64,000 bases of DNA from an uncultured cyanobacterium (GCA_963744145.1 CAVUSO010000001.1:1742831-1806830), one strand, 5' to 3'; shown: positions 5,284 to 60,432, counted from the stretch's first letter. Made by a program: numbers and translations. The notes: a model not told the origin generated them from the sequence alone.

Positions 5284-5372
5284 TTCAATTCTTGCTCCCC
5301 CTTTATAAGGAAGTTGAGGGGATCAATTCTTGCTCCCCCTTTTTAAGGGGGTTGGGGGGATCGGATGCAGCT
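5284..5372. repeat. Short direct repeat (ttcaattcttgctcccccttt x2) with a CCCCCTTTTTAAGGGGG hairpin and a GGGGGGATC motif; the same motif family recurs at 42871-42965
   Basis: Read directly in the sequence; the hairpin is a perfect palindrome ccccc-ttttta-aggggg. Confidence 0.5.
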
Positions 5373-5685
5373 TCATAAAAAATTGGTATAAGTAACTTAC
5401 CTAATTACAATCTTTAGCAATTACCAAAGAAAGTAGTTAAATTAAAATTTAACCGGATTGTCCCTAAGCTTGCTCCTTTTACCTCAACAATTTAGTTATA
5501 TCTTTATTCCCACCTTTAGGTCACCCCAACCTATTAGCGATCTGATGCTCATCTATGCTAGTAACCAATATGCAAACATAGCCATTTATGTTTTCGTTAT
5601 GTCTAAATTACATTTTAATCTATAAATACATAAAAAAAAGGGTTTGTCAAGAATATATAAGAGTTTTTAGGTAATTTGGCCCAAT

Positions 5686-8600
5686 TTAGCTCACTGGGGA
5701 TAAATGATGTTTGTAAGGGATGGCAATTATCAACTCTGTACCTTGTGCTATTTGCGAGTTAAAATTAAGACTTCCTTGATGTTTTTCAGTAATAATCTGA
5801 TAACTAATTGATAGTCCAAGTCCTGTCCCTTGTCCCACTGGTTTGGTGGTAAAGAAAGGGTCAAATATGCGATCGCGAACCGAGCTGGAAATACCAATCC
5901 CATTGTCAGCAATCCTAATTATCACTATTTTTTCTAATGGTTTAAATTCAGTAGAAATATAAATTTGGGGGTTCAAGAAAGATCCGGACTGAAGTTTTTC
6001 TTCGATCGCATCAATAGCATTATTCAAAATATTCATAAATGCCTGATTTAAAAGACCTGGATAACATTCCACTAGTGGAAGGTTTCCGAAATTTTTAATT
6101 ACCTGAATTTCCGGTCGTCTCGACTGTTGTTTGAGTCGCTGTTGTAAAATCATTAGTGTACTATCAATCCCAGCATGGAGATCAGATTCTTTCATTTCAG
6201 CTTCATCCAGACGAGAGAAATTCCGTAAAGATAAAACAATTGTTTTAATCCGTTCAGCCCCTTGTTGCATAGAACAGAGCAATTTTTGAAAATCCTCTTT
6301 GATAAAATTCAGGTCAATCCGCTCGAGTCGATCGGCAATTTTGGGGATGGGAGTTGGCTGAGATTTTTGATAAAGTTCGATCAATTCAATTAACTCTTGA
6401 GCATATTCACTAGCATAGGTAATATTTCCATAAATAAAACTGACAGGATTGTTAATTTCGTGAGCAATTCCCGCAACTAACTGACCGAGACTAGCCATTT
6501 TTTCATTTTGCACTAACTGGGCTTGTGTATTTTTTAATTCATGGAGAATTAATTCCAATTGTAAAGCTTTTGCACGTTCTCTCTGTTCCGATTTTTGTAA
6601 CGCAATTTCTGAAGTTTTCCGTTCAGTGATATCCATAATTGTCCCAAATAACCGCACAATCTGATTAAAATTGTTTAAGACGGCTTTTCCTTTAGCATTA
6701 ATATATCTGATGCTTTCATTCGGACCTAAAATCCGACAATCAAGCTGATAAGATTCCCCTAATTTCATCGCTTTTAATACTGTGCGTAAATAACCCTGAC
6801 GATCATCGGGATGAATCATTTGAATAACTTCAGCTAAAGTAGGTAGTTGTCCATTCGTCAGACCAAAGATGCGGAATAATTCATCTGACCAAGTAAAAAG
6901 TCCGGTGTTGACATCAAATTCCCAATTACCAATATGAGCAATTTTTTGAGCTGCTTGTAAGTTTTCTGTGAGTTGGAGTTTAGCTAATTGAGCAGCATAG
7001 CGATCGCTCAGGTCTTGATGTGTTCCAATCATCCGCACAGGTTTACCAGTTTCATCACGTTCAAACACTTTTCCCTGAGATAAAATCCATTTCCACTCCC
7101 CCGATTTATGTCGCATTCTAAATTCAACTTCATACATAGGAGTACGACCTTCAAAATGCGCTGTTAAAGCTTTAATAGATTCCGCTAGATCCGCAGGATT
7201 TACTAACCGCTTCCAAGCTTGAAATGTATCTTCAATCTCTGTTACTTCATATCCTAAAATTTTTTTCCATTGGGGATCAAAATAAATTTCTCCAGTTAGT
7301 ATATTCCAATCCCAGATCCCTAATTCACTACCAGCTAAAGCCATTTGTAAACGCGCTTCGCTCGATTGTAAAGCTAAAGCCGTTTTTTTACGTCCAATCC
7401 CTACAGCGACTTGACTAGCAATTGATTCGAGCAGATTTCGCAGATTGGAGTTGAAACAATGACGGGCAGACATCGCGATCACACCCACTAGTTGCTCTTC
7501 TAAAATTAAAGGATAACCAGCAAAAGCTACAATTCCTTCTTTTTTGATCACCTCTGGATTACTAATCAGAGGGTCATTGGCAATATTATTAGTTATATAA
7601 GCTTGACGTTCAGCTGCAATTAAATCTATTTTTAAGCTATAATAATTACCAAGATCAGCATCATGGCCAGCACTAGCTTTAAGTTCTAAGATATTCTCAG
7701 TTTGATTCAGTAGCCAAACTTGAGCTGATGGAGCATCTAAATATTCTACTAATGCTTGACAACATCGATTCAACATCTCCGGTAAATCACTACCTTTAGT
7801 TAAAGCTAGACCAATATTAGACCTTAAAGCTGACTGTCGCGCTCGTTGAATTAACTCCGCTTCTACTTGCTTATTTTCAGTAATGTCAGTTGCTGTACAA
7901 AGAATCTGCTGTACTTTCCCTGTCCTAGTTCTAGTAAAGATTACATCCCGACTGACAAACCAGTGCCATTTACCATTCCGATTCCGTAATCGATATTCAA
8001 TTTCAAATATATCCCCATCAAGTCCGAATTCAATTTGTTGATAATAATTAGGTAGTCTCGCTAAATCTTCCGGGTGCATCAGATTAGCAAATAATTCAGC
8101 CCCCATGATTTGCATTTCTGCCACGGAATAACCTAACATTAAAGCCATATTACGATTAGCATAAATCTGGTGATTGGCAATCAGATCATAAACATAAAAA
8201 ATATTAGGGCTTGATGCGGCAATTTTTTGAATAAAATTTAGCTTTTCTGTCAACAGGGAGTTATTTCTTAGTAGGGTTAGATCTGGTTTCTGCTTTAATT
8301 TAGCTGATTTTTTACTGATCGAGCGAGCGATCGCTAAAAATCCAGTCAGATTCCTGCTTTCGTTATATAATCCTGTGATTGATAAAAAAACTGAAAACTT
8401 AGTCCCATTTTTGCGAATATAAGTCCATTCTCTCTCTTCGATTTCTCCCCGTCTTACCTTGGTAACTAAAACCTCAAATCCTGGTGTGATTACCATTCCT
8501 AATTCTTGGGATAACTCTCGGGCACGTTCGCTAATTTCTAATGGACTATGCAGCATCATCAGCTCACCAAGTCCGATGATTTCGTCAGCTTGATATCCTA

Positions 8601-8820
8601 ATAACTTTTCTGCGGTTCTATTAAAAGTAACTATGCTACCATTAATGGTAGTGGAGATAATGGCATAATTAGCACTATCTAAAATTGTCTGTAGTAATTT
8701 TTCTTGGTCTGGAGCTGAATTAAACATTTGGGGTTTAGCTTGACTCATTGCTTTAATTCTGCTAAAATTCATTATCTTTAATCTATAATTTACTAGAATT
8801 TTTATTAATTGACCAGCCAC
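5686..8820 (-). CDS. Multi-sensor (PAS/GAF/PAS) signal-transduction histidine kinase
   Basis: H-box AHEINNPVSFIYGN, N-box NILNNAIDA, G1 DNGIGI, G2 [11 protein letters not shown]. The upstream PAS/GAF blocks are paralogous to the central part of ORF 1241..5209 (for example GDIFEIEYR..NG.W.W, IWDWN..TGE.YFDPQWKK.LGYEV). Two in-frame ATGs a few codons downstream (MNFSR, MSQAK) could be the true start. Confidence 0.85.
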   Translation of the reverse strand: MAGQLIKILVNYRLKIMNFSRIKAMSQAKPQMFNSAPDQEKLLQTILDSANYAIISTTINGSIVTFNRTAEKLLGYQADEIIGLGELMMLHSPLEISERARELSQELGMVITPGFEVLVTKVRRGEIEEREWTYIRKNGTKFSVFLSITGLYNESRNLTGFLAIARSISKKSAKLKQKPDLTLLRNNSLLTEKLNFIQKIAASSPNIFYVYDLIANHQIYANRNMALMLGYSVAEMQIMGAELFANLMHPEDLARLPNYYQQIEFGLDGDIFEIEYRLRNRNGKWHWFVSRDVIFTRTRTGKVQQILCTATDITENKQVEAELIQRARQSALRSNIGLALTKGSDLPEMLNRCCQALVEYLDAPSAQVWLLNQTENILELKASAGHDADLGNYYSLKIDLIAAERQAYITNNIANDPLISNPEVIKKEGIVAFAGYPLILEEQLVGVIAMSARHCFNSNLRNLLESIASQVAVGIGRKKTALALQSSEARLQMALAGSELGIWDWNILTGEIYFDPQWKKILGYEVTEIEDTFQAWKRLVNPADLAESIKALTAHFEGRTPMYEVEFRMRHKSGEWKWILSQGKVFERDETGKPVRMIGTHQDLSDRYAAQLAKLQLTENLQAAQKIAHIGNWEFDVNTGLFTWSDELFRIFGLTNGQLPTLAEVIQMIHPDDRQGYLRTVLKAMKLGESYQLDCRILGPNESIRYINAKGKAVLNNFNQIVRLFGTIMDITERKTSEIALQKSEQRERAKALQLELILHELKNTQAQLVQNEKMASLGQLVAGIAHEINNPVSFIYGNITYASEYAQELIELIELYQKSQPTPIPKIADRLERIDLNFIKEDFQKLLCSMQQGAERIKTIVLSLRNFSRLDEAEMKESDLHAGIDSTLMILQQRLKQQSRRPEIQVIKNFGNLPLVECYPGLLNQAFMNILNNAIDAIEEKLQSGSFLNPQIYISTEFKPLEKIVIIRIADNGIGISSSVRDRIFDPFFTTKPVGQGTGLGLSISYQIITEKHQGSLNFNSQIAQGTELIIAIPYKHHLSPVS

Positions 8821-9294
8821 TACTGCTTAATTCGATCTAATTATTATTGTAATCGAAATTAATTGATTAAAATATTAAATCTTCGATAAAGTTTTATAGA
8901 AAAATGTAAAGTTTAATCACAAATTAGATTTCGATGAAATTTTTCCTATTGCTCAATATCCATCCTTGACTGAGGTGATTTTAACTAGACCAGAATAATT
9001 TGATGATTTAGATTTCAATATGTTAATAACTATTAAGTAATTTTTGGGCAGAACCAATGACAAAAATTAACTAATTAATTCGCATTGGGACTAAGCAAGA
9101 TCACTTACTTCTGTCATAAAAAATTACTGGCAGGACTTACCCAAGAACCCTATATCTAGTAAGTAAAATGGGTCTGTCCCCCCACAAATAGCGTTTAAAT
9201 TAAATATTCGGGTGATTTTGACTTGTTTAATCGCTAGTTTGTGTTATCTTGTTAGATCCGTTGATTCCTGCTTTAATGGGTAGGTATAAGTCCC
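8821..9294. promoter_or_regulatory. AT-rich 470-bp divergent intergenic region (promoters of the kinase gene and the CyRepA-like gene; possibly origin-like)
   Basis: No ORF; very AT-rich, with several TCGAT/TTCGA-containing short repeats; it lies directly upstream of a replication-protein-like gene. Confidence 0.3.
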
Positions 9295-12200
9295 ATGTAT
9301 TTGAACAAATTAGATCCCAAACACTTACAGGAGTTAGCAACAGATAGTGGCATTGATCTGGCCCTAGCTGGGCTAAATTTTCAATCCTTAAAAGGGGATA
9401 TTTCCTATGAATATTTATTAAACTCCGCCCGACTCAATCGGACTAATACAGGAAAACTTACTTATGGGTGGTTACGTCGTTATCGTCATCTTGATCAAGG
9501 AGGTTGGTGGTGTTCCGGATTAGATCCACTTAATCATTGGAATTTAATGGATTGGGGATGTTTTAAACCAAATTATCCCCGCTTAAATCAAGATGGTAAA
9601 ATTATTAAATATGAACATCCTCCTCAGACTCCCACGAGAATTTTTTGTTTGCGAGTAAATTGGCAAATTTGGCAAAAAATTTCTGGGCGTTACCATGTTG
9701 CTATGCCCGATGAAATTAGCCAAAAAGATGATGGCGAAACTTTAGGTTTTTGGTCATGGGTAGTGACCAAAAATCTACCGATCATTTTGTGCGAAGGAGT
9801 GAAAAAAGCCGCCGCTTTATTGAGTCAAGGATATGTAGCGATCGCCTTACCAGGAATCAACAGTGGTTACCGAGTCAATCGCAATGATCAAGGACAGGTC
9901 ATCAACCGCAAATTAATTCCAGACTTAGCTGTATTCACTCAAAAAAACCGGACATTTTATCTGTGCTTTGATTGGGAAAATCAACCCAAAAAAATTAAGG
10001 CAGTTAATCAAGCGATCGCGCAAATAGGTCAATTATTACAAGCGCAAAAATGTCAGGTGAAAGTGATCAGACTACCGGGATTAGAAAAAGGAGTTGATGA
10101 CTTTATTGTTTCCCGATGTCCAAACGAATTCGACTCTCTTTATGATGGGAGTTTAGATTTAGAATCGGATCTGGCTAAAAATAAACCCCATAGTGAATTA
10201 ACCTATCCCCCAGACCTAATTTTACATCAACGCTACCTGGAAAAAATCCCTTTTCCGACAGCAGGATTAGTTGGGGTTAAATCTGCTAAAGGAACTGGAA
10301 AAACTACAGCTCTCACCGCGTTGATCCAAGACCCAAACAATCAAAACCGTCCCATTTTAATTCTCACCCATAGAATCCAACTCGGACAATTTTTATGCGA
10401 TCGTCTGGGGGTAGACTGGATTCATCACCACGATCGGGAAACACCCAGCCAAAAATTAGGACTTTGTTTTGATTCACTTTGGAAAATTGATCCGAATGAT
10501 TGGATGGGGGGAATAATTATCTTAGATGAAATTGAGCAATCCTTGTGGCACCTGCTGAACAGTGATACTTGTAAACAAAAGCGCATCCAAATCTTGGCAA
10601 TTTTTCAACAATTAATTGCTATTGTCTTGCAAACAGAAGGTTTAGTGATTGCTCAAGATGCTGATTTATCAGACCTTTCTCTCGACTACCTCAAAGGATT
10701 AGCTGGAAGTCAAATTGCACCTTGGATTTTAGTGAATGAGTGGAAACCATTAAAAAATTGGGATGTTACCTTCTATGATTGTGCCAATCCTACCATGCTA
10801 ATTCATCAACTAGAACTTGATTTAAAAGCCGGAAAAAAATGTTATGTAGCCACCGATAGTCGTGGAGGACGTTATAGTTGTGAGCTACTCGATCGATATA
10901 TTAAACAACGTCTAGAATCTTTAGTAGATCAATACCCCAAAACTTTAATAGTCAGCGCTCATACTACCACTACTCCTAACCATGAAGCGGTTAATTTTGT
11001 CAAAAATATCAACGAAAACGCTAAAAATTATGACGCGGTTTTTGTGACCCCTACTCTGAGTACAGGAGTGAGTATCGATGTCGAGCATTTTCAGCGTGTT
11101 TATGGGATTTTTGTAGGAGTTATCTCCGATCTAGACGCAAGACAAGCATTAGCAAGAGTACGAGCTAATGTACCAAGAATAATTTGGTGTGCTAAACGGG
11201 GAATTGGTTTGATTGGTAGTGGGAGTAAAAATTATCGCGTGATTTCCCATTGGTATCAAGAAAATCATCAAGAAAACTTAGCTTTAATCAGTCTCCAACC
11301 TAACATTGATGTAGATTTACCGTTAATTTATGATCCGATTCATTTAAGAACTTGGTCGAAATTAGCAGCGAGATTAAATGCTTCGCTGACATTTTATCGT
11401 CTCTCGATGTTAGAAGGATTAAAGAATGAAGGTTATCAAGTTAATCTAATTAGCGATGCTCCTCCCACAGAACGGATTCAAAAGTTACGTCAGACATTTC
11501 TAGCTACTCCGACCGATAATTGGTCAGTCCGTGCTAAATTAATCCGGGAAATTGTGCAAGTACAAAATGAATTTACCAGACAAAGTAAAAAAAGCAAATC
11601 TATTAGTAATCAAATTAAAAATTTGCGTACTCGGAGGGAAATCCAATTAGCTAATGCTGTTGCTAATGCAGTAGATTTGACGGAGAGCGAATATCAACAG
11701 CTATTAGCTAAACGTTATTTAACTGATCAGGAGCGTGAGCAAAGAGATAAATATATTCTACATCAACGCTATGGGGTAAAAGTTACAGCAGAATTAAAAT
11801 TACGAGATGATCAAGGTTATTATTCACAGCTCATTCTGCATTACTATTTAACCCATGAATGTAACTATTTCCAGTTGCGAGATTTGGCAGAATGGAGTCA
11901 ACATTTAGACCGAGGAAAAGGTAAGGTATTTCTACCAGATTTGACACCTTACACTTTAAAAATTGAAGCTCTAAGAGTATTAGGAGTTTTAAAGTTCTTA
12001 GACTTAGATCGATATTTTAGGGAAACTGACTCCGACTTAATCGCTCTGCAAAAAACAGCACAAGAATGTAGTAAGCATATTCAAAGATGCTTGGGGATAA
12101 ACATTTTTCGCGATCGGGAAAAAGAACAGCTTAATTCTGTAAAAATCCTGAGTTTAATTCTAAAGTTGTTGGGAATTAAGCTGAAATTTTGTCAAACCAT

Positions 12201-12351
12201 AAAAAATGAACGGGAATTACCACTGAAAGTTTACCAAATTGACCCTCTGACTTTTAATGATGGTCGAGCCGAAATTTTTGCAATTTGGCAACAACGTGAG
12301 ATGGTGACCGATCAGATTACCAGTGGGGATTTTTCGTTATTAGCGCTTTAG
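9295..12351 (+). CDS. CyRepA-like plasmid-type replication protein: N-terminal DUF3854 (TOPRIM-like primase) domain + P-loop NTPase/helicase-like domain
   Basis: The N-terminus GGWWCSGLDPLNHWNLMDWGCFKPNYP...GKIIKYEHPPQTPTRIFCL and ILCEGVKKAAALLSQGYVAIALPGINSGY match the DUF3854/TOPRIM signature. Walker A is LVGVKSAKGTGKTTAL and Walker B is GGIIILDEIEQ. The architecture is that described for cyanobacterial plasmid replication proteins of the CyRepA type. Confidence 0.6.
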   Translation: MYLNKLDPKHLQELATDSGIDLALAGLNFQSLKGDISYEYLLNSARLNRTNTGKLTYGWLRRYRHLDQGGWWCSGLDPLNHWNLMDWGCFKPNYPRLNQDGKIIKYEHPPQTPTRIFCLRVNWQIWQKISGRYHVAMPDEISQKDDGETLGFWSWVVTKNLPIILCEGVKKAAALLSQGYVAIALPGINSGYRVNRNDQGQVINRKLIPDLAVFTQKNRTFYLCFDWENQPKKIKAVNQAIAQIGQLLQAQKCQVKVIRLPGLEKGVDDFIVSRCPNEFDSLYDGSLDLESDLAKNKPHSELTYPPDLILHQRYLEKIPFPTAGLVGVKSAKGTGKTTALTALIQDPNNQNRPILILTHRIQLGQFLCDRLGVDWIHHHDRETPSQKLGLCFDSLWKIDPNDWMGGIIILDEIEQSLWHLLNSDTCKQKRIQILAIFQQLIAIVLQTEGLVIAQDADLSDLSLDYLKGLAGSQIAPWILVNEWKPLKNWDVTFYDCANPTMLIHQLELDLKAGKKCYVATDSRGGRYSCELLDRYIKQRLESLVDQYPKTLIVSAHTTTTPNHEAVNFVKNINENAKNYDAVFVTPTLSTGVSIDVEHFQRVYGIFVGVISDLDARQALARVRANVPRIIWCAKRGIGLIGSGSKNYRVISHWYQENHQENLALISLQPNIDVDLPLIYDPIHLRTWSKLAARLNASLTFYRLSMLEGLKNEGYQVNLISDAPPTERIQKLRQTFLATPTDNWSVRAKLIREIVQVQNEFTRQSKKSKSISNQIKNLRTRREIQLANAVANAVDLTESEYQQLLAKRYLTDQEREQRDKYILHQRYGVKVTAELKLRDDQGYYSQLILHYYLTHECNYFQLRDLAEWSQHLDRGKGKVFLPDLTPYTLKIEALRVLGVLKFLDLDRYFRETDSDLIALQKTAQECSKHIQRCLGINIFRDREKEQLNSVKILSLILKLLGIKLKFCQTIKNERELPLKVYQIDPLTFNDGRAEIFAIWQQREMVTDQITSGDFSLLAL

Positions 12352-14152
12352 CTAAATGACTTTCTAGCGGTTTGGAAAATAAATATCCTTGGGCAAAATG
12401 GCAATTAAGCGATCGCAATTCTGCCAATTGTTCAGGAGTTTCCACTCCTTCCGCTAATGTTTCCAATCCCATGGTCTGAGCCATACTAATAATCGCGGGT
12501 ACAATCCCAGTATTTTTGTTTATTTCTGCCATCGGTTGGACAAAAGATTTGTCAATTTTGAGAGTATTAAATGGAAAATAATGCAAGTAACTTAAGGAAC
12601 AATAACCAGTCCCAAAGTCATCAATACTTAACTGAATTTGCCGCTCGCGGAGGGCTTGCATGATGGCTTTTACTGATTTATTATTATCCGTAATTGCACT
12701 TTCAGTAATTTCTAACTTTAAGTTTTGCGGATTCAAATTAGTGTCTTGCAGAATTTGGTCAATTCGGTTGAGAAGATTAGGTTGAGAAAATTGACGTGCG
12801 GAAAGATTAACACTAATATGTATGGACTCAAAAATGCTATCCTCTTGTTGCCAAAGATAGAGTTGCTGACAAGCAGCTCTCAACATAAAAATATCAATTT
12901 CCGTAATTAATCCTGTTTCTTCAGCTACAGGAATAAATTTTATTGGTGAAACTAATCCCTGTTGAGGATGGAGCCAGCGTACCAGGGCTTCAAATCCCAC
13001 AATTTGGCCTGTAATTAAAGAGATAATTGGCTGATAATAAGGAATAAATTCTTGTTGATTTATCGCCTTTCTTAGTTCAGTTTCTATTTGTAAAAGCTGA
13101 ATAGCTTCCTCGTGCATATTTGGGTCAAATATATGATAACGAGCTTTTCCCAGTGCCTTAGCTCGGTACATAGCCGTATCCGCATCTCTGAGTACATATT
13201 CGGGTTTTTCATAGTTAATATTTCCCACAGCGATGCCAATACTAGCATTAATAAATACCTCATGTCGAGAAAGTTGAAAAGGATGGGAGAGAGATTGCAA
13301 AATTTTGTCTGCGGTTTGGGCAGCAATATCGATGTTGGCTTTTTCCTCGAGTAAAATAGCAAATTCATCACCGCCTAGTCGGGCTAATGTATCCACCATA
13401 CTTAAAAATTTTTCTAACCGTCTCGCGATCGCAATCAATAATTCATCTCCTACTAAATGACCCAAAGAATCATTCACAATTTTAAAGCGATCGCAATCTA
13501 AAAATAGAATGGCAAAATGATAATCAGGTTCTTCTTTAGTGCGATTCAAAGCTGACTCTAAACGTTCCATAAATAAAGCCCGATTTGGTAAGCCAGTCAG
13601 AGAATCATGTAGAGCCATTTCCAGCAATTTACTTTGAACCCGCTTGCGTTGAATAATTTCTTGTTGCAGTTCTTTATTACTATTTTCTAACTGCAACGTG
13701 CGATCTTCTACCCGTTTTTCAAGTTCAGCATTGAGCTGCATAATTTTTACTTGTGCCGCTCGTAAATTTAATTGATTTTGCACTCGAACTAAAAGTTCTT
13801 CAATTTGAAATGGCTTAGTTACATAGTCAGCACCACCAATTGTAAAAGCTTTTACTTTATCAAGTGTTTCATTTAATGCACTTAAAAAAATCACGGGAAT
13901 TTCCCGAGTTTTGTCAGATTGTTTCAAGATTTCACAGACTTCATAACCATTCATTTCCGGCATATTAATATCAAGTAAAATTAAATCTGGTGGTTTAGCG
14001 TGGGCGGCTTTTAACGCTGTCTTTCCACTGGTAACACACCGAATTTTATACCCTTGATTAGTCAATAAATCGGCCAGCAGCCGGAGATTATCTGGGGTAT
14101 CGTCAACGAGCAGAATATTACCTTTAGATGCAGATGATAAATCCGGATTCAT
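12317..14152 (-). CDS. Response regulator with GGDEF diguanylate cyclase and EAL phosphodiesterase domains (REC-GGDEF-EAL)
   Basis: REC: ILLVDDTPDNLRLLADLL..LILLDINMPEMNGYEV. GGDEF motif RLGGDEFAIL. EAL motif FEALVRW, plus QGYLFSKP at the C-terminus. The ATG overlaps the TGA of the upstream kinase (ATGA). Confidence 0.9.
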   Translation of the reverse strand: MNPDLSSASKGNILLVDDTPDNLRLLADLLTNQGYKIRCVTSGKTALKAAHAKPPDLILLDINMPEMNGYEVCEILKQSDKTREIPVIFLSALNETLDKVKAFTIGGADYVTKPFQIEELLVRVQNQLNLRAAQVKIMQLNAELEKRVEDRTLQLENSNKELQQEIIQRKRVQSKLLEMALHDSLTGLPNRALFMERLESALNRTKEEPDYHFAILFLDCDRFKIVNDSLGHLVGDELLIAIARRLEKFLSMVDTLARLGGDEFAILLEEKANIDIAAQTADKILQSLSHPFQLSRHEVFINASIGIAVGNINYEKPEYVLRDADTAMYRAKALGKARYHIFDPNMHEEAIQLLQIETELRKAINQQEFIPYYQPIISLITGQIVGFEALVRWLHPQQGLVSPIKFIPVAEETGLITEIDIFMLRAACQQLYLWQQEDSIFESIHISVNLSARQFSQPNLLNRIDQILQDTNLNPQNLKLEITESAITDNNKSVKAIMQALRERQIQLSIDDFGTGYCSLSYLHYFPFNTLKIDKSFVQPMAEINKNTGIVPAIISMAQTMGLETLAEGVETPEQLAELRSLNCHFAQGYLFSKPLESHLAKALITKNPHW

Positions 14153-31085: not shown

Positions 31086-32208
31086 CTATGTGTTTGCTGC
31101 GGCTAGGCCGCCTGAAGGAATCATCAAAGTGCCACATTGACCCTGATGGCGCAAAAGATGATCGCATAATACTAATGCAACCATTGCTTCTACCATAGGC
31201 ACTGCTCTAGGCAAAACGCAAGGGTCATGTCGTCCTTTTGCAGCTAAAATCGTTTCTTCTCCCTGATTAGTCACGGTGCGCTGCTCTTGACGAATTGTAG
31301 CAGTTGGTTTAAACGCCACACGTAAAATAATATTTTCACTATTGGAAATGCCACCCTGAATTCCGCCAGAACGATTGGTGCGTGTTCGCACTTCTCTATT
31401 ATCTACATAGAATTCATCATTGTGTTCACTTCCTGTCATCAGGGTACCAGCAAAACCTGACCCAATTTCAAATCCTTTACTTGCTGGTAATGACATGACA
31501 CCTTTGGCGAGATCTGCTTCCAATTTATCAAAAACTGGATCACCTAATCCTGATGGGACATTTCTAACTACACACTCTACTACACCTCCAATGGAATCTC
31601 CTTGTTTTCGCACTTGTTCAATTAGTTTGATCATCCGTTCGGCACAATCGGCATCAGGACAACGTGCAATGTTGCTTTCTACTTCCTCGATGGTAACTTG
31701 GTCAGGATCGATTACTGCTTCTAGATCTTTAATGCGTTTAACATAACCGACTATTTCTACATCAGCAACTTGTTTTAAGATTTTTTTGGCGATCGCTCCT
31801 GCTGCGACTCTACCGATGGTTTCTCGCGCTGAAGATTTACCTCCACCTTGCCAGTTGCGAATGCCATATTTAGCATCATAGGTCGCATCTGCATGGGAAG
31901 GTCGATATTTGACAGCCATTTCATCATAATCCTGGGGACGAGTGTCTTGATTGCGGACTAACATCGCGATCGGTGTCCCCAATGTTTTTCCTTCAAATAC
32001 TCCTGAAACAATTTCGCATAGATCTGCTTCTTGACGTGGTGTGGTAATTTTGCTCTGTCCTGGACGTTCTCCGATCTAGTTCTTGTTGGATTTCTAATAC
32101 GGAAATTTCTAGTCTTGGTGGACAACCATCGATCACTACGCCCACTCCACCTCCGTGGGACTCTCCAAATGTGGTTATGCGAAATAAATGTCCGAAGGTA
32201 TTACCCAT
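31086..32208 (-). pseudogene. aroC: Chorismate synthase aroC interrupted by an apparent +1 frameshift (two ORFs: 31993..32208 N-terminal part, 31086..31982 remainder)
   Basis: The N-terminal ORF reads [47 protein letters not shown], then runs out of frame. Shifting one base at about 32066-32072 (an agaa run) restores ...[35 protein letters not shown], which joins the second ORF ([19 protein letters not shown]...). The remainder is a full-length AroC. Confidence 0.7.
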
Positions 32209-38350: not shown

Positions 38351-41003
38351 TTCTGATTAGGGGTTCAACTAAATCAACAATATACTCGAATTTAAATCGA
38401 CGGGCAAGTTTTGTCAGTGATTGGATTAAACGAGTTTCTGTTTCTGGAATTTCTCCGATCAATTGGATCACCAGATTAGGATTAGCCTCAAGAGCAGCTT
38501 CGTATAGTTGAGTAATCCATTTTTCAGACATACAGTTTAGCTGTACCGATGTCAAAACGCTCTCTGTTAACTCCTCTGATGTCGGTAGTTGTGTTTCTGC
38601 ATAGATATATTTTACTCCCAAATGCTTGGCTAGGACGTCAAAAATCCTGTATTCAGTAAAGGGTTTGCGGAGGAAGTCATCACACCCTGCTGAGAGAACT
38701 ATGGCTTTTTCTTCTTCTAATAAGCTCGCAGTAACGGCAATTATTGCTGTAGCATTGCCTTTAGTGGTGGATTTGATGTATTTGGTAGCTTCATAACCAT
38801 CCATAATCGGCATTCTCATGTCCATCCAAATCAGGTGGGGTTCCCATTCATCCCAAATCGCGATCGCTTCTTGACCATTACTAGCCTCTTTCATCTCAAA
38901 TCCTAACGGTTCTAAAAGCTTAATTAGTAATTGTCGATTAATCAGTTTATCATCTACTGTCAGAATTTTGTAGGTAGGTTGACCAGGAGCCAATGCCAGA
39001 ACTATTGGATGTTCTTCTGTACTCTTACTGACTGTTCTCTGACCTAATTTTGTTTGAATATAAAATTCAAAAGTTGTGTTTTTTCCTAATTCACTTTCTA
39101 CGGAAATATCTCCTCCCATTAGTTGGACAAATTTTCGACTTATTGCTAAACCTAAGCCTGTTCCTTCTTGCATCTCTTTTCCAGCCTGTGCTTGAAAAAA
39201 GGCATCAAAAAGCTTTGGCAATTCGTCAGCAGCAATCCCTACCCCAGTATTCTGGACGCGAAAATGAAGATTAAAAATATCGGTAGTTTCTCGATCGCCC
39301 TGAAAGACCTTCAAAATAATTTTACCCCGGTCGGTAAATTTAATCGCATTGCTGAGTAAATTAATTAAAACCTGACGAAGTTTGACTTCATCAGTACAAA
39401 TATAGCGGGGGATATCTTCTATCTGCTGAAAAACTAACTCTAACCCAGCATTAGTTGCCCGCAGATGTAGCAGATCTTCTAAATCCTTTAGCAAGAAATG
39501 TAAGTCAAAATCTTTAGGGTTGAGGATAGTTTTACCAGCTTCAATTTTCGATAAATCTAAAACATTATTAATCAGGGTCAATAAGTAATCACCACTGCGA
39601 TTAATAATGCTCGCATTTTCTTGATGAGATGGTGGTAAGTTTCTAGCACGCACCATCAATTGAGAAAAACCGATAATAGCATTAAGAGGCGATCGCAATT
39701 CATGACTTATGTTAGCAATAAACATACTTTTGGCTTGATTAGCGACTTCAGCTTTTTCTTTAGCAATGGCTAACTCTGCTGTTCTCTCCTGTACCCGTTG
39801 TTCCAAAGTTTCCAAAGATGTTTGTAACTCAAATGCCATGTTATTAAATGATTTTGCCAGTTGACCTATTTCATCTTTTGAGTTAATTTTGGCGCGGATA
39901 TATAAGTTACCTGCGGTAAACTGGAAAACTATATTGGTCAGGTAAATTATTGGTTTGGTTAATAGTTGCCCAATGGCAAAAGCAAAGATTGTTACTACTC
40001 CAGCAATAAATACAAATAGAAACATTGCGTCCTGAACTTGCTTGGTTACAGGTGCTAGGGCAACAGCAATGGGCTGGGCGAACAACACAGACCAATGTTT
40101 ATATTTTATATGTGCGATCGCCATCAGATTAACCTGATTACCTGTTGCTGCCAAAGATGTAATTAAATAGGACTGTTTATGATCCAATGCTTGCTTAAGT
40201 TTTGACTCATTAGTTGCCAATTCTTTAACAGGATAATTAGGCAAACGCCCTTCTTGTTGCAGTTGAGTTACAAGATCATTAGGCAGAGGCATAATTGGTT
40301 TAAAAAGCATTTCTGGTGCAGTGCTATGTGCCAGATAAATATTATTTTCATCTAAAAGAATAGCAAAAGATTTTGAACCAGCCCGTTCAGTTTGTCGAGT
40401 TACTAGCTGTTGGACAACAGTAGCATTGTATGAAACCCGCAATACCCCCAATATATTTCCTTTGGCATTGCGAACTGGACTGCTAAAAAAGAGCGTAACA
40501 AGGTCTGGAATTGTCGGCGATCGCTTCATCCTAGAAACAAAAGGTAAATCAGTTTGTACTGGTTTTTTAAAATAATCTTGAACTGATTCATCTTTACCAA
40601 TATTTAGTGTATGTGTATCCAATAAATTTTTTCCATTTAAGTCGAGCAAAGCATAGGAGAGAACATTGAGCATATCTTTGCGACTAAGACGGATTAATGT
40701 TTCTGTCGCTAATTGCATTTCGGGGCTGTCATCTCGGTGTTTTGGAGTTAGGTTGAGATAGCGTGCTAAACCAGGTAAAATCGCTTCTACGCGCACCGCA
40801 TCGAGATTTGCATCAATAAAGTCATCAATTCTGTTAGCAGTTTCGTTAGCTGCCGCAGAGAGGGCTTGTCGGGCGTTGTCAGTAAGTGCTTTTTCAGTTG
40901 TCTTTATGTTGATAAATGCCAATAACAGCAACGGAATCAAAGCAACAATGAGAAATGAGGCGATCAACTTTGTACGGATGCCGCCCAAAAAGGAATGCTG
41001 CAT
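38340..41003 (-). CDS. Hybrid sensor histidine kinase with periplasmic double-Cache-like domain, HAMP, HisKA, HATPase, REC and C-terminal helical domain
   Basis: Two TM segments flank a ~300-aa periplasmic region; H-box [15 protein letters not shown]2 [12 protein letters not shown]; [32 protein letters not shown]. Confidence 0.85.
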
Positions 41004-41012
41004 GGCTTTAAA

Positions 41013-41993
41013 TTAAGAGGGAGAGTTTAAGAAGGAAGAATTGAACAAACTTTTTAGCTCAGGAATAGATGTCACGTTTCCAGAGCGAATAAAAAAGTCT
41101 GCATAGATTTTGGCAGTTTGGTAAATGGAGTTAGGGTTGCGAGATTGAAAGAATTTTTGATTTTCACCTAAATCAGTTAGGCTTACTCCCTCCAGAGAGA
41201 TTGTATTGCTAGGAATTTTTAACGCTTTACTAATTATAGCATTTCCTTCCTGAACATTTGCTTTCCAGTAGGTCGAGGCTTCTAGCCATGCTCGTACAAA
41301 TGCCCGAACGTCTGAGGGGCGATCGCGGATGATCTCACCGCGAAAGATAATCAGATCTAAAATCAAGCCGGGGGTTTGTTTGCTAGTAAATAGGATATGC
41401 CCTCCTGATTTAATAGCTTCAGAAAGATGAGGTTCCCAAGTGTGTCCAGCTTGAATGGCATTATTTTTCAAGCGTTGAGGAATTTCTGAAGGCTCTAATT
41501 TAACCAAGTTCACATCATCGCTGGTTAACTTAGCAGTTTTCAACATTTCTGTCACGAAAACTTCACTAAAACCGCCTAGATTTGCACCCAGTTTTTTCCC
41601 TTTCAAGTCAGCGACAGTTTTAATTTGTGATTGGGCGACTACTACATCTCCTCCTGTTGATTCATCTATAACCACCACAGCTTGTAGATCTGGATTTGTG
41701 GCACTCAAGATGATAAAACTTCCCAAGGTCGATGTCATTCCATCATACTTACCCGCACTGAAATTCGCTATTTCTAATTGGATGTATTGTTTATAAATTA
41801 ATTCCACATCTACGCCTTGGGCTTTGAAGAATCCTTTTTCTTGAGCAATGATACCTGAATGCTCCCCAACAAAAGATGTAAATTCCACTTTCAATGGAGG
41901 AGGTTTTAATTTGGTCGGTACTGAAGCATGACAAGTAAATAGCAAACAGGCGGTAATGAGAGAAATACTAATATATCTAAGTAGTTTAAGCAT
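41013..41993 (-). CDS. Periplasmic ABC-type substrate-binding protein (NMT1/SsuA/TauA-like), probably the co-sensor of the downstream kinase
   Basis: Signal peptide, binding-protein fold pattern, and a 9-nt gap to the kinase gene on the same strand. Confidence 0.55.
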   Translation of the reverse strand: MLKLLRYISISLITACLLFTCHASVPTKLKPPPLKVEFTSFVGEHSGIIAQEKGFFKAQGVDVELIYKQYIQLEIANFSAGKYDGMTSTLGSFIILSATNPDLQAVVVIDESTGGDVVVAQSQIKTVADLKGKKLGANLGGFSEVFVTEMLKTAKLTSDDVNLVKLEPSEIPQRLKNNAIQAGHTWEPHLSEAIKSGGHILFTSKQTPGLILDLIIFRGEIIRDRPSDVRAFVRAWLEASTYWKANVQEGNAIISKALKIPSNTISLEGVSLTDLGENQKFFQSRNPNSIYQTAKIYADFFIRSGNVTSIPELKSLFNSSFLNSPS

Positions 41994-42056
41994 GGTATAC
42001 TCAATAGAATTTAATCATTGCTGATCAGGGGTTCAACTAAACCAATTAATTCTGGC

Positions 42057-42635
42057 CTACAAAATCTCATCAACGCTGATCACTATGTCCGGAAACGCAA
42101 GAGGTGAGATAGTTTCACCATGTCTAAATTGTTGGACACTTTCATAACCGTTAGGACTAGGGTTGCGATAAACCTCGACTAATTCCGCTGGGATGTCTAC
42201 GATCCAAAGTTCAATAATTCCTGCTTGACTGTAAAGAACTGATTTTTCATTACGGTCATATTCCACCGTAGTGACCGATACTTGGATTAATAGATATATG
42301 TCTTGGGGTTGTGGAAGCTGATACCTGTAACAATCCTCACGCGGTTTCAAAATAGATAGATCCGGTTCCGGTTCAAATTGTCCATTTAGTCTAACTGGGG
42401 TTTGTGATGTGATTAAAGCATGATCCCCTAAAGCCTTAAAGAAAATTTTCAGTAAACGCGGAATACAAGCCGCATGACGACTACCCATCGGTGCCATAAG
42501 CATAATATCCCCATCAATTAGTTCCGTTCGTTCATCAGGTCCAATTATCCCGATTTCACCCAGCTTGTAATATTCTTCTACCGTAAATTTCTTTCTTGCT
42601 GGTTTTGTTGCTACTGCGATCATCTTTCTCACCAT
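42057..42635 (-). CDS. Uma2-family (DUF820) putative endonuclease
   Basis: FTVEEYYKLGEIG...ELIDGDIMLMAPMGSRHAACIPRL...LSILKP...IYLLIQVSVTTVEYD...ELWIVD is the typical Uma2 pattern that is multicopy in cyanobacteria. Confidence 0.8.
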   Translation of the reverse strand: MVRKMIAVATKPARKKFTVEEYYKLGEIGIIGPDERTELIDGDIMLMAPMGSRHAACIPRLLKIFFKALGDHALITSQTPVRLNGQFEPEPDLSILKPREDCYRYQLPQPQDIYLLIQVSVTTVEYDRNEKSVLYSQAGIIELWIVDIPAELVEVYRNPSPNGYESVQQFRHGETISPLAFPDIVISVDEIL

Positions 42636-42870
42636 CCCATTAACTGACTAGCTCCGCTAATTCTCATTCTAATTGCGTTCACTAGCTTGTACCTTATGTA
42701 ATCGCGTAGTATACCGTAGGTAATCGCATATTGATCACACGACGAGCCGACTGTCTATCCTCTAGCCAGAGAATGCTCATTATCGGATAGTTATGGGTAA
42801 ATTTACTAATCCTCAAACAGTTATGATGTCGATCATACCTTCCCTATCTCTTATACCAATTTTTGATGAG

Positions 42871-42965
42871 GGTGCAGAGAATTGATCCCCCCAGCCCCCT
42901 TAACAAGGGGAGCATGAATTTAAAGTCCCCCTTGTTAAGGGGGATGCGAGGGGGATCTAGATCTA
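42871..42965. repeat. Hairpin repeat pair (cccccttaacaagggg / cccccttgttaaggggg) with GATCCCCC / GGGGGATC ends; same family as 5284-5372
   Basis: Read directly in the sequence. Confidence 0.45.
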
Positions 42966-43084
42966 TGCAACTTCACATTAAATTGGTATTACCAGGAGAA
43001 TAGGTCTAAAGACCAAGGTCGATCGAGTTGGTTAATTTACCAAGGATTACCAATAATCGTAAATCCACTCCAAAAATAAGGATG

Positions 43085-55313: not shown

Positions 55314-57104
55314 CTAAGAAGTGCATCCAGCCGAGCAAGCAACCCGAAAGCCGTATTCGCTGACGCGGACATCCGGCCCATTATAGTCGCGATACGCAGA
55401 ACGACAAGCATTTGGAAAGTTGACCCACGACCCACCGCGCCCCAGCCGATATTGAGAATGATTCTTATTATCATCCCAGGAACTGCCATCTATGGGCGCA
55501 CCCTGGTAATTATCATGCCAAGAATCAGCACACCATTCCCATACATTTCCGTGCATATGATATAAGCCAAAACCATTGGGTGGAAAATTTCCTACATAAG
55601 TTGTTTTTTGGCGGCGATACTTCCCTTTTGATTCATTAGCGTAAGTATCACTAGCGTCATAATAAGCTAACTTACTGGTGATCGTTTCTCCAAAGTGAAA
55701 CGGTGTTGTTGTTCCTGCTCGACAAGCATATTCCCATTCCGCTTCGGTCGGTAAACGATAGTTTTTGCCTGTCTGTTTAGACAGTCTCGCACAAAATTCT
55801 AAAGATTCATACCAATTTACACTTTCTACAGGTCGATTTTCACCTTTAAATCTAGAGGGGTCTGTCGTTAAATCCATATTTATTGTAGGTAATTGAGCAA
55901 CAACACGCCATTGAGCTTGTGTTACTGCATATTTTCCTAGATAAAATGATGCTACAGTTACATCATGTTGCGGTCCTTCGTGATCAGATCTATTTTTTTC
56001 ATTACTTGGTGAACCCATCTTAAATTTACCGCTCGGAATTTTTACCATCTCTAAAGTCGTACCGTTTCCCAGATTTTCGGTAAAAAATTCCGCTTGTTCT
56101 CGACGGTTATTAATTTCCTGACCTTGTGCATTTACAGTTATTACCTCAAAGGTAAATATTTCTAATGAAAATGGTGCTGGTGCTGGGGTTAATGGTATTG
56201 ATGGGATGGGATACAACTGCTGCTCAATTTTTTTGAGACGTTGCAAAATTTCTTGAGTATTTTTAGGTCGCATCCCTGGAAAGGGTGCCATTAATTCATC
56301 GATAAAATCTGCCAATATCGGCGATATTTTTGCATTTCCGTCACGCCATAATAGTTGCATTGTTTCTGAATATTCAAAATTTGTCGGTCCTTTTCCTGTC
56401 AGCAAAAATACAAAAGTACGCCCTAAAGCATAAAAATCTGATTGTGGTACGGCTTGATTATGAATTTGTTCTAAAGGTGAATATTCGGGAGTAAAAACAC
56501 TGGTAACACCTGACATTTTACCGACTTTAGCTAAGTAGGTAGCTGTCATTTCTCTGGCAGTACCAAAGTCAATTAGAACTAACTGTCCATGAGGACGTTG
56601 CATGATATTAGGTGGTTTAATATCTCGGTGGAAATAGTCCTGTTTGTGGACGCAATCTAAAATTTCGGTGATTTGTTTTAACCAGTCGATCGCTTCTTTT
56701 TCCTGAATCGGTGGTTTTCCTTTCATCCATGTTTCTAAGTTTTCACCCTCCACCTTTTCCATCACAATGCAATAGATCAGCGGATCGTTGTTTCTGGGCT
56801 GAACTGTGAAATAAGCATCTACCTTGGGAATACCGGGATGATTTAGTTTGCTTAATACTTCTGCTTCTTTTTGAAATAGTTCTACTGCTTTAGGTTGATT
56901 TACTTTTAAAACTTTGAGGATTTTTGGCTTTCCTTGATCATCTGCTTCGTAAATAGTGCCAAAACCGCTATTGTCACTAAGTAGGTGTTTTACCCAGTAG
57001 CGTTTTTGCAGATATCTATCTGTTCCACAGTTACAACAGATAGGGTTAGTTCCGCTAGCGGGTTCATCGGGTTTGGGACAGTTTGGGTTTATACAGAGAC
57101 TCAT
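55314..57104 (-). CDS. Ser/Thr protein kinase fused to a C-terminal FGE-sulfatase (formylglycine-generating-enzyme-like) domain, with an N-terminal Cys-rich zinc-ribbon
   Basis: Zinc-ribbon CINPNCPKP..CCNCG; kinase motifs HRDIKPPNIM, DFGTA; C-terminal FGE/SUMF1 motifs GNVWEWCADSW, RGGSWVNFPNACRSAYR. Confidence 0.85.
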   Translation of the reverse strand: MSLCINPNCPKPDEPASGTNPICCNCGTDRYLQKRYWVKHLLSDNSGFGTIYEADDQGKPKILKVLKVNQPKAVELFQKEAEVLSKLNHPGIPKVDAYFTVQPRNNDPLIYCIVMEKVEGENLETWMKGKPPIQEKEAIDWLKQITEILDCVHKQDYFHRDIKPPNIMQRPHGQLVLIDFGTAREMTATYLAKVGKMSGVTSVFTPEYSPLEQIHNQAVPQSDFYALGRTFVFLLTGKGPTNFEYSETMQLLWRDGNAKISPILADFIDELMAPFPGMRPKNTQEILQRLKKIEQQLYPIPSIPLTPAPAPFSLEIFTFEVITVNAQGQEINNRREQAEFFTENLGNGTTLEMVKIPSGKFKMGSPSNEKNRSDHEGPQHDVTVASFYLGKYAVTQAQWRVVAQLPTINMDLTTDPSRFKGENRPVESVNWYESLEFCARLSKQTGKNYRLPTEAEWEYACRAGTTTPFHFGETITSKLAYYDASDTYANESKGKYRRQKTTYVGNFPPNGFGLYHMHGNVWEWCADSWHDNYQGAPIDGSSWDDNKNHSQYRLGRGGSWVNFPNACRSAYRDYNGPDVRVSEYGFRVACSAGCTS

Positions 57105-58545: not shown

Positions 58546-60432
58546 TCGGTAAGTGGGAAACTCAGTTCTTTAGAACTGGGAGGGAAACGGCTCGTGCGGT
58601 TTTAACCGCCAGTAAATATTTCTTCAATTAGCGGAGTGGTGTGGGTCTTCTATGTATTTCTTAACCACTTCACTACTAATATTACCTGCTGTGCTTACAA
58701 AATAACTGCTTGTCCAAAGACTAGGTAATTTTAATAATTGTGGAAACTCTTTTCTTAGATAATTACTTGACCTTCCTTTAAATGCTTTAACCACCAGTGC
58801 GGGGGTGTCTGTCGGTTTAACTGCCACAAATAGATGTACATGATCTGGGGCAACTTCTAAGGCTAAAATATCCCAACCTTTCTCTATTGCCAAAGCTAAA
58901 AATATCTGACGGATTCTAGTTGCTATATCGCCGACTAGAACTGGACGGCGACGCTTAGGGATAAATACAAAATGGTAGTTAAGCAGGAACTTGACGTGAT
59001 TGTGGGTTTTGTATTCCGGTAAATTTAGCATAAAAAGATTGTAGATATAAGTTGACAAATCAACTATACTACGTTATGCTGTTAATAACAAGATAGAAAA
59101 GGAAAGAAAGTGGCTAAAGCTAGAAGTAAGACGCCAAAAAAAACCAAAGTACCGTTAGGTGTTCAGCAAAATTTGATCAATGCTGAACCAGAGTTAAAAG
59201 CAATTCTTGAATTTATTTGCTCGGAGTCGAACAAACTCCACAATTGTGCTACCTACTATGCGCGTCAAATGTGGTTTAAAGCTCACCAATACGTCACCAA
59301 GTTTGACATAGTAAGGAATCTTACGGAAAATGTGCATTTCTCTGCACTACCCTCAGATGCAGCAGTGCAAACTTGTATCTCAGTGGGAGAGTCAATTAGC
59401 TCTTTTGCCAAGTTACGGGGGTTGTGGCTAAGTGGTCAACTTGAAACTAGACCCAAACTACCCAATTATCGAAAACCGGGGTATCAATTAGTTGCCTATC
59501 CTAAACGGTCACTAAGGTTAATTGATGGAAAGATTAGATTCCCTTTAGGATTACAGGTCAATGCTTGGTTTGGCATCAAAGAATTTTTCCTACCAATGCC
59601 AACTAACCTAGATTTTGAGTCTCTTAGAGAGGTCAGGATACTCCCTAGAAACGGTTGCTTTTATGCTGAGTTTATCTACCCAGTTCTAGTCGAAAAACCT
59701 GTCCTAGACCCAGCTAAATGTTTGGGGATAGACCACGGTTTGAATAACTGGTTGACAGCCGTTAGTAATGTAGGGACAAGTTTTATTATTGATGGCAAAC
59801 ACCTAAAGTCAGTCAATCAATGGTACAACAAACAGGTCGCCAAACTTAAAGCTAATAAACCCGAAGGTTTTTGGTCTAATCGTTTAGCTGCAATGACGGA
59901 GAAACGTAATAGACAAATGAGGGACGCTATCAACAAAGCGGCTCGGATAGTGATAAACCATTGTTTAAATAATGGGATAGGAACTTTAGTTTTTGGTTGG
60001 AATAAAAGTCAAAAAGATGGGATAGAGTTAGGCAAAAAGAACAATCAAAACTTTGTCCAAATCCCTACGGCTAGGCTTAAAGCAAGAATTCAAGAACTTT
60101 GTGAGTTGTTTGGCATTAAGTTTGCCGAAACTGAAGAAAGTTATACCAGCAAGGCTAGTTTTTTAGATGCTGATCCCATCCCAACTTACGGTGAAAAACC
60201 CGCAGGATGGACAGCATCAGGAAAAAGAGTTAGCCGTGGTTCCTATCTCAGTTCCAAAGGCACTAAGATAAATGCCGATTGCAATGGTGCAGCCAACATT
60301 TTAAGAAAAGTAGCGGTGGAGCTTGGGCTAGTCCTAAGTGAAATCAGTAGAGGTGTCTTGTACGCGCACTTTGAAGTTCAGGATCTGGACTCTTCAAGAA
60401 TCTCAGTGTCTTTAGACCTGAGAGTATCAATC
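58536..60432. mobile_element. IS200/IS605-family insertion sequence (divergent tnpA / tnpB) inserted in the FGE domain of a Ser/Thr kinase gene
   Basis: tnpA and tnpB ORFs; subterminal hairpin cagttctttagaactg near the left end; the host reading frame is interrupted exactly between ..GAPIDGSAW and DTNKNNYQYH..; the ends are approximate. Confidence 0.75.
58624..59058 (-). CDS. tnpA: IS200/IS605 family transposase TnpA (HUH Y1)
   Basis: HVHLFVAVKPTDTPALVVKAFKGRSSNYLRKEFPQL...LWTSSYFVSTAGNISSEVVKKYIE is the Y1 transposase signature (HxH + catalytic Tyr region). Confidence 0.85.
   Translation of the reverse strand: MSTYIYNLFMLNLPEYKTHNHVKFLLNYHFVFIPKRRRPVLVGDIATRIRQIFLALAIEKGWDILALEVAPDHVHLFVAVKPTDTPALVVKAFKGRSSNYLRKEFPQLLKLPSLWTSSYFVSTAGNISSEVVKKYIEDPHHSAN

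Follow-up and report, generated by a model that had tools for sequence, protein, structure and literature searches.

The family of CyRepA replication proteins and its architecture are known from published work (PMC10079941, PMC9978351). Slr7037 (CyRepA1), encoded by plasmid pSYSA of Synechocystis PCC 6803, is genetically essential for the theta-type replication of that plasmid and acts in trans (PMC9978351), and the plasmid copies of CyRepA are mutually compatible and independent (PMC10079941). Of 145 complete cyanobacterial genomes, 80 were also found to have CyRepA homologues on the chromosome, where their function was considered to need validation, and those tabulated include Cri9333_1600, alr3925, slr0554, Npun_R4929, Tery_1066 and SYNPCC7002_A0214 (Ohdate et al. 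2024, PMC10899382). The present analysis concerns a gene of this family in an uncultured cyanobacterium. The window, as the whole stretch of 64,000 nucleotides (nt) is called here (GCA_963744145.1, CAVUSO010000001.1:1742831-1806830), carries a rep-like gene that, with the intergenic region preceding it, occupies positions 8821-12351. The evidence favors, with reasonable though not high confidence, the interpretation that this gene is an intact member of a distinct, slowly evolving branch of CyRepA1 proteins that resides on the chromosome of filamentous cyanobacteria and is inherited vertically, and not the decaying remnant of a plasmid.

The original prediction, made from the sequence alone, described a CyRepA-type protein with an N-terminal DUF3854/TOPRIM-like domain and a P-loop NTPase, and profile searches bore out the family. 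The Pfam family DUF3854 (PF12965) matched amino acids (aa) 152-274 with an E-value of 5.3e-49 and a score of 165.9 bits, the cut-off being 23, and the NCBIfam model NF042913 (CyRepA1) scored 378.8 bits against a cut-off of 200 over model positions 2-593 of 595. The open reading frame (ORF) call and its translation confirmed the predicted position, the length of 1018 aa and every motif that had been quoted, namely GGWWCSG (aa 69-75), WGCFKP (87-92), IKYEHP (104-109), ILCEGVKKAAAL (164-175), ALPGINSGY (184-192), GTGKTT (333-338) and IILDEIEQ (408-415). The start codon of the ORF matches the N-termini of 70 orthologues. Moreover, the Logan assembly of ERR11571142 reproduces positions 5332-13976 of the window at 99.99% identity, although both it and the assembly at NCBI may go back to one set of reads.

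An AlphaFold model of aa 1-315, with a predicted template modeling score of 0.78, was compared with the PDB using Foldseek. The top 11 matches were all cores of DnaG primases, with E-values from 7e-6 to 9e-4, and the next match had an E-value of 0.06. Since this part of the protein matches DnaG cores only, the entire N-terminal third, beyond the DUF3854 domain itself, is a DnaG-type primase core. The Pfam families Toprim and zf-CHC2 gave no match at E-values up to 10 in 12 members of the chromosomal clade described below. A stretch rich in cysteine and histidine was observed ahead of the Toprim domain, within positions 9295-9650 of the window (aa 69-118, GGWWCSG...WGCFKP...KYEHPP...FCL). In this stretch C73 is nearly invariant and C89, H108 and C118 are invariant; the stretch was modeled at low confidence, and it could bind metal in place of the zinc-binding domain of DnaG.

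The model of the full-length protein had a mean predicted local distance difference test (pLDDT) score of 70, with good stretches at aa 120-480 and at aa 730-1010 and a poor one at aa 485-720. Its best match in the PDB was the origin-binding protein UL9 of herpes simplex virus 1 bound to OriS (9hgj), with an E-value of 5.8e-11 and 800-877 aligned columns, and the fold matches that followed were generic superfamily 2 (SF2) helicases. When a profile of the clade was searched against the sequences of the PDB, the herpesvirus origin-binding proteins were the sole significant relatives (E = 8e-4), over motifs I-III, while a second stretch over the region of motifs V and VI was weak and sub-threshold. 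The window protein alone, used as the query of the same PDB sequences, gave no match. The Pfam family Herpes_ori_bp (PF02399) scored 13.0 bits in the window protein, below the gathering score of 20, and matched weakly in 7 of the 12 clade members, with a best E-value of 5.3e-5; ResIII also matched weakly. The C-terminal helical domain, which lies inside the UL9 alignments, may bind DNA. The single polypeptide would then be a self-contained DNA-binding helicase and primase, with activities and a target that we infer by analogy.

All catalytic motifs are intact in the window protein. In the alignments of 12 and of 70 clade members, the invariant or nearly invariant residues include C166-E167-G168, F225-D226-x-E228 and G266-V-D268 of the Toprim-like domain, Walker A (K332-G-T-G-K-T337) and motif II (L410-D-E-x-E-Q415) of the helicase. 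In motif VI, the residues R616, Q617, A618, L619, R621 and R623 are invariant among the 70 sequences, and A615, A620 and V622 are conserved in at least 90% of them.

The relationship of the gene to plasmid-borne and chromosomal homologues was evaluated next to its anatomy. A search of 5.8 billion proteins returned homologues with 56-64% identity, from genera that include Coleofasciculus, Microcoleus, Scytonema, Fischerella, Mastigocladopsis, Crinalium and Nostoc. Contigs of 4-9.4 Mb, such as those of Scytonema HK-05 (8.8 Mb), NIES-4073 (9.4 Mb) and Crinalium PCC 9333 (5.3 Mb), carry many of these homologues. In PLSDB, 204 plasmid records, 63 of them from Nostoc, carry a homologue; identity to the window protein never exceeds 40.5% among them and is mostly 33-37%. 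In a neighbor-joining tree built from 17 proteins of chromosomes and 7 of plasmids, the chromosomal proteins formed one monophyletic group; a long stem leads to it, and the order of branching inside it agrees with taxonomy. Identities were 58-97% inside this clade, 34-43% between the clade and the plasmid copies, and 37-48% among the plasmid copies. Furthermore, an exhaustive phmmer search of 1.84 billion representatives at 50% identity found the whole clade as one cluster (P0049, 1376 bits, 60% identity), the next match falling to 754 bits and 42% identity, among 838 clusters at E-values up to 1e-30. The collapse into a single cluster and the drop in score indicate that the clade is a single compact lineage that evolves slowly, whereas the family around it is highly diverse. 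Judged from these comparisons, the chromosomal copies of filamentous cyanobacteria are one vertically inherited clade, distinct from all plasmid copies.

Additionally, 80 orthologous loci were collected by a search of contigs with an alignment as the query; a single protein as the query found none. In the Nostocales the rep orthologue is surrounded by core genes: chlB (TIGR01278, 794 bits) lies within 10 kb of it in 35 of the 80 loci, in Nostoc, Fischerella and Trichormus. In these 35 loci the pairwise distances of the rep-like protein and of ChlB were correlated, with a Mantel r of 0.92 that was reached in none of 2000 permutations, and the rep-like protein diverged about 3.4 times faster than ChlB. 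A gene for a YefM/Phd-type antitoxin (cluster c18) was seen to adjoin the rep orthologue upstream in 14 Nostoc loci (L010, L013, L021 and others); it has no counterpart in the window.

The replicon was identified from the contig and from the genes of the window. The window protein, as an exact match, and the GlmU protein of the window are both recorded on a contig of 7,634,710 base pairs (bp), and single-copy housekeeping genes within the window include glmU (784 bits against a cut-off of 602), leuA (849 against 532), aroC, cysC, trmJ and modA. The window is part of the main chromosome. Together with the protein data, this allows the identity of the gene and its chromosomal, vertically inherited status to be stated with high confidence. 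The original prediction had named a core chromosome with syntenic orthologues as the mark of a conserved chromosomal gene. The chromosomal part of that statement holds and the synteny holds in part, as it was found within the Nostocales and not for the neighbors of the gene in the window. In annotation, the automatic label "plasmid replication protein, CyRepA1 family" should not be taken to indicate a plasmid contig or an integrated plasmid. The features of the gene and of its upstream region are collected in Table 1.

Table 1. Positions of the rep-like gene, its domains and motifs, and the adjoining elements in the window.
Feature	Position (nt)	Strand	Basis
CyRepA1-family coding sequence, 1018 aa, ATG start	9295-12351	+	ORF; NF042913; Slr7037 alignment; orthologues of the chromosomal clade
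DnaG-type primase catalytic core (N-subdomain and Toprim), about 300 aa	9295-10194	+	AlphaFold model of aa 1-315; PDB matches
DUF3854 (Toprim-like), aa 152-274, with invariant acidic E167, D226/E228 and D268	9748-10116	+	PF12965; alignments of 12 and 70
SF2 helicase core, aa ~320-700	10252-11394	+	Motifs; UL9 fold and profile match
Walker A, G333-T338	10291-10308	+	Alignment of 70
Motif II, D411-E412-I-E-Q	10525-10539	+	Alignment of 70
Motif VI, A615-R623 (ARQALARVR)	11137-11163	+	Alignment of 70
C-terminal helical domain with terminal helix/beta-hairpin module, aa ~724-1018	11464-12348	+	pLDDT mostly 74-93; inside UL9 alignments
Convergent 3' end overlap of the rep-like gene with the response-regulator/GGDEF/EAL gene (12317-14152, -)	12317-12351	.	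35 nt; ORF coordinates
A+T-rich divergent intergenic region, 474 bp, no iterons	8821-9294	.	70% A+T against 63% in the surrounding 8.6 kb
Predicted extended -10 element TGTTATCTT (TGnTAnnnT)	9242-9250	+	Clade conservation
Clade-conserved non-coding motif GTTAGATCCGTTGA at the predicted transcription start	9251-9264	+	Cross-genus comparison

The upstream region was compared across the clade. In 74 of the 80 orthologous loci the extended -10 element starts between -55 and -38; in random windows of 49 nt its frequency is 5.6%. A 43-nt block with 81% identity is common to the window and to Coleofasciculus (L002). The motif that follows the -10 element reads GGTTTTAGATCCGTTGA in Coleofasciculus, and the related sequence GGTTTTA(A/G)ATCC(G/A)TTG occurs across the Nostocales and in other genera. 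Both the -10 element and the motif downstream of it are missing upstream of 6 plasmid-borne genes. From the consensus, transcription is predicted to start at about 9256-9258, leaving a 5' untranslated region (UTR) of about 38 nt. The loci are phylogenetically non-independent, but the element spans several orders, and this pattern of sequence conservation indicates a dedicated promoter that is conserved in the clade.

Other short elements were noticed in the same region. One upstream block, CCAAGAACCCTA..TAGT (9141-9163), resembles the corresponding sequence of Argonema (L009), a second, CCCCACAAATAGCG (9180-9193), is identical in a metagenome-assembled genome (L005), and a palindrome similar to CTA-N4-TAG is found at the same upstream place in several Oscillatoria-type loci. 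The short blocks at 9141-9193 may be sites for regulators. The Nostocales loci (L008-L081) have a 10-nt inverted repeat, GCAGATGCAT at about -65 and ATGCATCTGC in the start region, which brackets the promoter and the start codon and is absent from the window. A hairpin of these two arms in the 5' UTR was considered and rejected. Pairing was found in 79.3% of cells compared to 79.7% after shuffling, covariation was 0.18 against a shuffled mean of 0.20, and the predicted promoter lies downstream of the 5' arm. The inverted repeat could instead be a paired operator.

By analogy with Slr7037, the protein would bind DNA at chromosomal sites, open or unwind its target using ATP and then lay RNA primers. 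DNA synthesis would start from these primers without the loading of DnaA, DnaB and DnaG, either in initiation or in the restart of a fork. What is proposed here about enzymatic activity, target DNA and physiological role all derives from that analogy, and replication or restart of the chromosome in particular is put forward only tentatively, as one possible function of the gene.

Several observations weigh against the interpretation of the gene as an intact, vertically inherited chromosomal CyRepA1 with a function of this kind. The literature gives no activity or phenotype for members of the chromosomal clade, slr0554 being mentioned only in two unrelated papers and alr3925 not at all. Many cyanobacterial chromosomes have no member of the clade, so it is not universally essential. 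No origin-like cis element was found adjoining the gene. The RecA2 region of the helicase is poorly modeled, as a large part of aa 485-720 has a pLDDT below 50, and the TM-scores of the full model against UL9 are low (0.17-0.22) because of this domain. The synteny and co-divergence data come from the Nostocales only, and the 80 loci are mostly from Nostoc and non-independent. The neighbors of the gene in the window recur near none of these loci, and synteny is not conserved outside the Nostocales. Furthermore, there is no close relative for a comparison with an empty site, the best GlmU match being 79% identical and the best match of the rep-like protein 64%. An ancient single integration followed by domestication and a gene that was always chromosomal fit the same evidence and cannot be told apart.

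The possibility was considered that the gene encodes a domesticated helicase-primase that has no part in initiation and serves as a trans-acting replication protein for plasmids lacking their own, in restart or repair, or in defence or conflict. This is rather unlikely, although it fares best among the alternatives. A service to plasmids would fit the action of Slr7037 in trans, and genomes with the chromosomal gene, such as those of Crinalium and N. punctiforme, also carry plasmid paralogues; the compatibility and independence of the plasmid copies (PMC10079941) argue against a general trans-acting protein. The absence of the clade from many cyanobacteria, including some without dnaA, means that it is not a universal replication factor, and the lack of an origin-like element beside the gene points the same way. 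The YefM-type antitoxin gene directly upstream in some Nostoc loci would also suit a role of this kind. Slow evolution that tracks taxonomy, together with a private conserved promoter, is unusual for conflict systems, and no conserved defence partners were found nearby.

A bolder proposal is that the chromosomal clade is the missing initiator, or self-loading primosome, of DnaA-independent replication in filamentous and some unicellular cyanobacteria, that is, a plasmid-type helicase-primase domesticated long ago that fires chromosomal origins. In Synechocystis 6803, Synechococcus 7002 and Nostoc 7120 the chromosome is replicated independently of DnaA through an unknown mechanism, the deletion of dnaA in S. 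elongatus is rescued by an integrated plasmid origin, and the DnaA-free replication of polyploid cyanobacterial chromosomes is an open question (PMC7198777). All three DnaA-independent species (PCC 6803, PCC 7002 and PCC 7120) have a chromosomal CyRepA homologue, the unicellular copies being candidate members of the clade, and none is present on the chromosomes of the DnaA-dependent S. elongatus, marine Synechococcus and Prochlorococcus (PMC10899382). Against this, the chromosomes of the dnaA-less Cyanobacterium aponinum and C. stanieri and of Geminocystis NIES-3708 have no homologue, nor do those of several filamentous genomes; Microcoleus vaginatus and Geitlerinema PCC 7407 also lack one (PMC10899382). 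The gene of the window has no origin-like element beside it either. The proposal is attractive but was judged improbable.

The original prediction suggested that the gene may mark an integrated replicon. In this case a CyRepA-type plasmid would have integrated and left its rep gene, possibly with a cryptic origin in the A+T-rich region upstream. There are precedents, as the family is defined by plasmid initiators, the deletion of slr7037 leads pSYSA to become integrated in the chromosome (PMC9978351) and the chromosome of S. elongatus can be driven by a plasmid origin that has been integrated (PMC7198777). The upstream region that had been estimated at 470 bp indeed measures 474 bp and is rich in A+T, and the gene is the only one on the + strand within a run of - strand signaling genes that are not syntenic with other loci. 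The search for an origin, for which either a cluster of DnaA boxes or at least three direct repeats some 17-22 bp long would have counted, did not support this suggestion. Positions 8821-9294 contain no iterons, only two-copy repeats of 9-15 nt at the level expected by chance for A+T-rich DNA, and Tandem Repeats Finder reported nothing between 8000 and 12760. No repeat families were found inside the gene. The DnaA box TTWTCCACA occurs twice in the 64 kb, where 1.9 occurrences are expected, and both copies are far from the gene. Upstream of the gene there is no small ORF like ssr7036, no conserved small ORF and no DNA similarity to the ssr7036/asRNA1 origin region of pSYSA.

Other properties of the locus also speak against a relic. 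The ORF is intact and its catalytic residues are invariant across 70 orthologues. The codon usage is typical of the window: the gene has a GC content of 0.38, a GC content at third codon positions of 0.294 and a correlation of relative synonymous codon usage with the rest of the window of r = 0.918, like other long genes, while the outlier, and the most atypical gene in the window, is the IS605-type tnpB at 59.1-60.5 kb (0.514). Within about 12 kb, genes for partition (par), transfer (tra), integrases, toxin-antitoxin systems and tRNAs are all absent, and the 3' end overlaps the neighboring gene, which would leave no space for the boundary of a mobile element on that side. The nearest relatives are chromosomal, with 56-64% identity against at most 40.5% for plasmid copies. 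Any integration would be older than the split of the Nostocales from the Oscillatoria-type lineages, and thus a domestication and not a relic. A relic of recent integration is largely refuted, and the suggestion as a whole is very unlikely.

The original prediction also allowed that the window may be part of a chromid or megaplasmid, which would then replicate through this protein. The Rep-family gene, the frameshifted aroC and the IS200/IS605 and Uma2 genes in the window speak for this. It is so improbable as to be negligible, as the 7,634,710-bp contig carries glmU, the window also holds leuA, cysC, trmJ and modA and has no partition genes, and the largest cyanobacterial plasmids are below 1 Mb (PLSDB; PMC10899382 table). 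An analysis of GC skew showed local changes of sign that track gene orientation and no inflection at the rep-like gene, 64 kb being too short to infer an origin. The cumulative skew reached its minimum (-2.29) at about 39000-43000 and rose thereafter, which partly follows gene orientation and cannot be interpreted in a window so short. Neither dnaA, dnaN nor a cluster of DnaA boxes was found in the window, and a tRNA scan and an Rfam scan of the 64 kb gave no match.

The surroundings of the gene agreed with the original prediction, which had placed it among signaling genes with a 35-nt overlap with a convergent GGDEF-EAL gene. A divergent histidine-kinase gene (5686-8820, -) lies upstream across the 474-bp gap, and all genes flanking the rep-like gene for about 12 kb on each side belong to PAS/GAF/histidine-kinase/response-regulator signaling. 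Positions 1241-24964 form a run of about 24 kb of - strand signaling genes that is broken only by the rep-like gene. This run encodes PAS/GAF and hybrid histidine kinases, among them a protein of 1954 aa, the response-regulator/GGDEF/EAL protein, response regulators and a receiver/PAS/GAF protein in which no kinase domain was detected.

Elsewhere in the window, the frameshift noted earlier in aroC, encoding chorismate synthase (31086-32200, -), is real. It is a single change of frame near ...ELDRR|RPGQSK... that leaves the N-terminal 66 or so aa in another frame. As this is an essential gene on a long contig, an indel error of the assembly and a real pseudogene are equally likely. An IS200/IS605 pair at 58624-60462 consists of tnpA (58624-59058, -) and a gene for a TnpB-family RNA-guided nuclease (59110-60462, +), and the tnpB ORF overlaps the 3' end of a Ser/Thr-kinase gene (60378-62258) by 85 nt. 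The latter is one of two paralogues, the other at 55314-57104, that combine a Ser/Thr protein kinase with a formylglycine-generating-enzyme/PvdO-like domain. Three genes of the Uma2 family, putatively restriction endonuclease-like, lie at 42057-42635, 62398-62988 and 63285-63737.

Among known systems, Slr7037 has the same collinear arrangement of DUF3854, SF2 helicase and C-terminal helical region, with 34% identity over aa 5-997 by BLASTP, and shares the acidic residues of the Toprim domain, Walker A and B and motif VI. The two differ in that slr7037 is borne by a plasmid beside an origin of the ssr7036/asRNA1 type, whereas the window gene is chromosomal and has no such origin upstream. The window protein has DxE (D226-W-E228) where the plasmid protein has DxD (DND), and it has an extra segment of about 50 aa within aa 711-790. 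Unlike Slr7037, it falls in a distinct clade that evolves far more slowly and has a predicted promoter of its own.

UL9 is an SF2 helicase that recognizes the origin and unwinds it. It is the best structural match for aa ~320-1018 (PDB 9hgj, 9hgi; PF02399), and the SF2 motifs I, II and VI are present, but the two proteins share only about 13% identity, UL9 lacks a fused primase and the Pfam gathering score was missed. The modeled protein is therefore described as UL9-like, and membership in the UL9 family is not established. The N-terminal 315 aa match only the RNA-polymerase domains of DnaG (PDB 2au3, 1eqn, 3b39, 5guj). The acidic clusters CEG, FDxE and GVDD resemble the Toprim motifs of DnaG, to the residues of which theirs would correspond. 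Identity to DnaG is 10-17%, and the window protein lacks the DnaB-binding C-terminal domain and is fused to its own helicase instead. The RepA proteins of the linear plasmid-prophages N15, PY54, phiKO2 and phiHAP-1 were the sole matches in a phage collection, over aa 484-722 with 26-33% identity and E-values of about 1e-5 to 1e-6. These are annotated as primase/helicase replication proteins and are likewise initiators of a single polypeptide; they differ in that the similarity is local only, the primase is of another type and the hosts are Enterobacteria, Vibrio and Halomonas. The origin of N15 lies inside repA.

Compared with the catalogue of Ohdate et al., the window gene is an instance of the same phenomenon from a phylogenetically isolated genome, as its best GlmU match of 79% indicates, and the catalogued Cri9333_1600 (P0062) is 58% identical to the window protein. 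The chromosomal CyRepA homologues were already counted there and were uncharacterised (PMC10899382). The present comparison adds their assignment to a single vertical clade, the structural assignments to DnaG-like and UL9-like parts and the clade-specific promoter. The filamentous chromosomal copies are one lineage and not scattered plasmid debris, which makes them a defined candidate for a function in chromosomal replication or restart.

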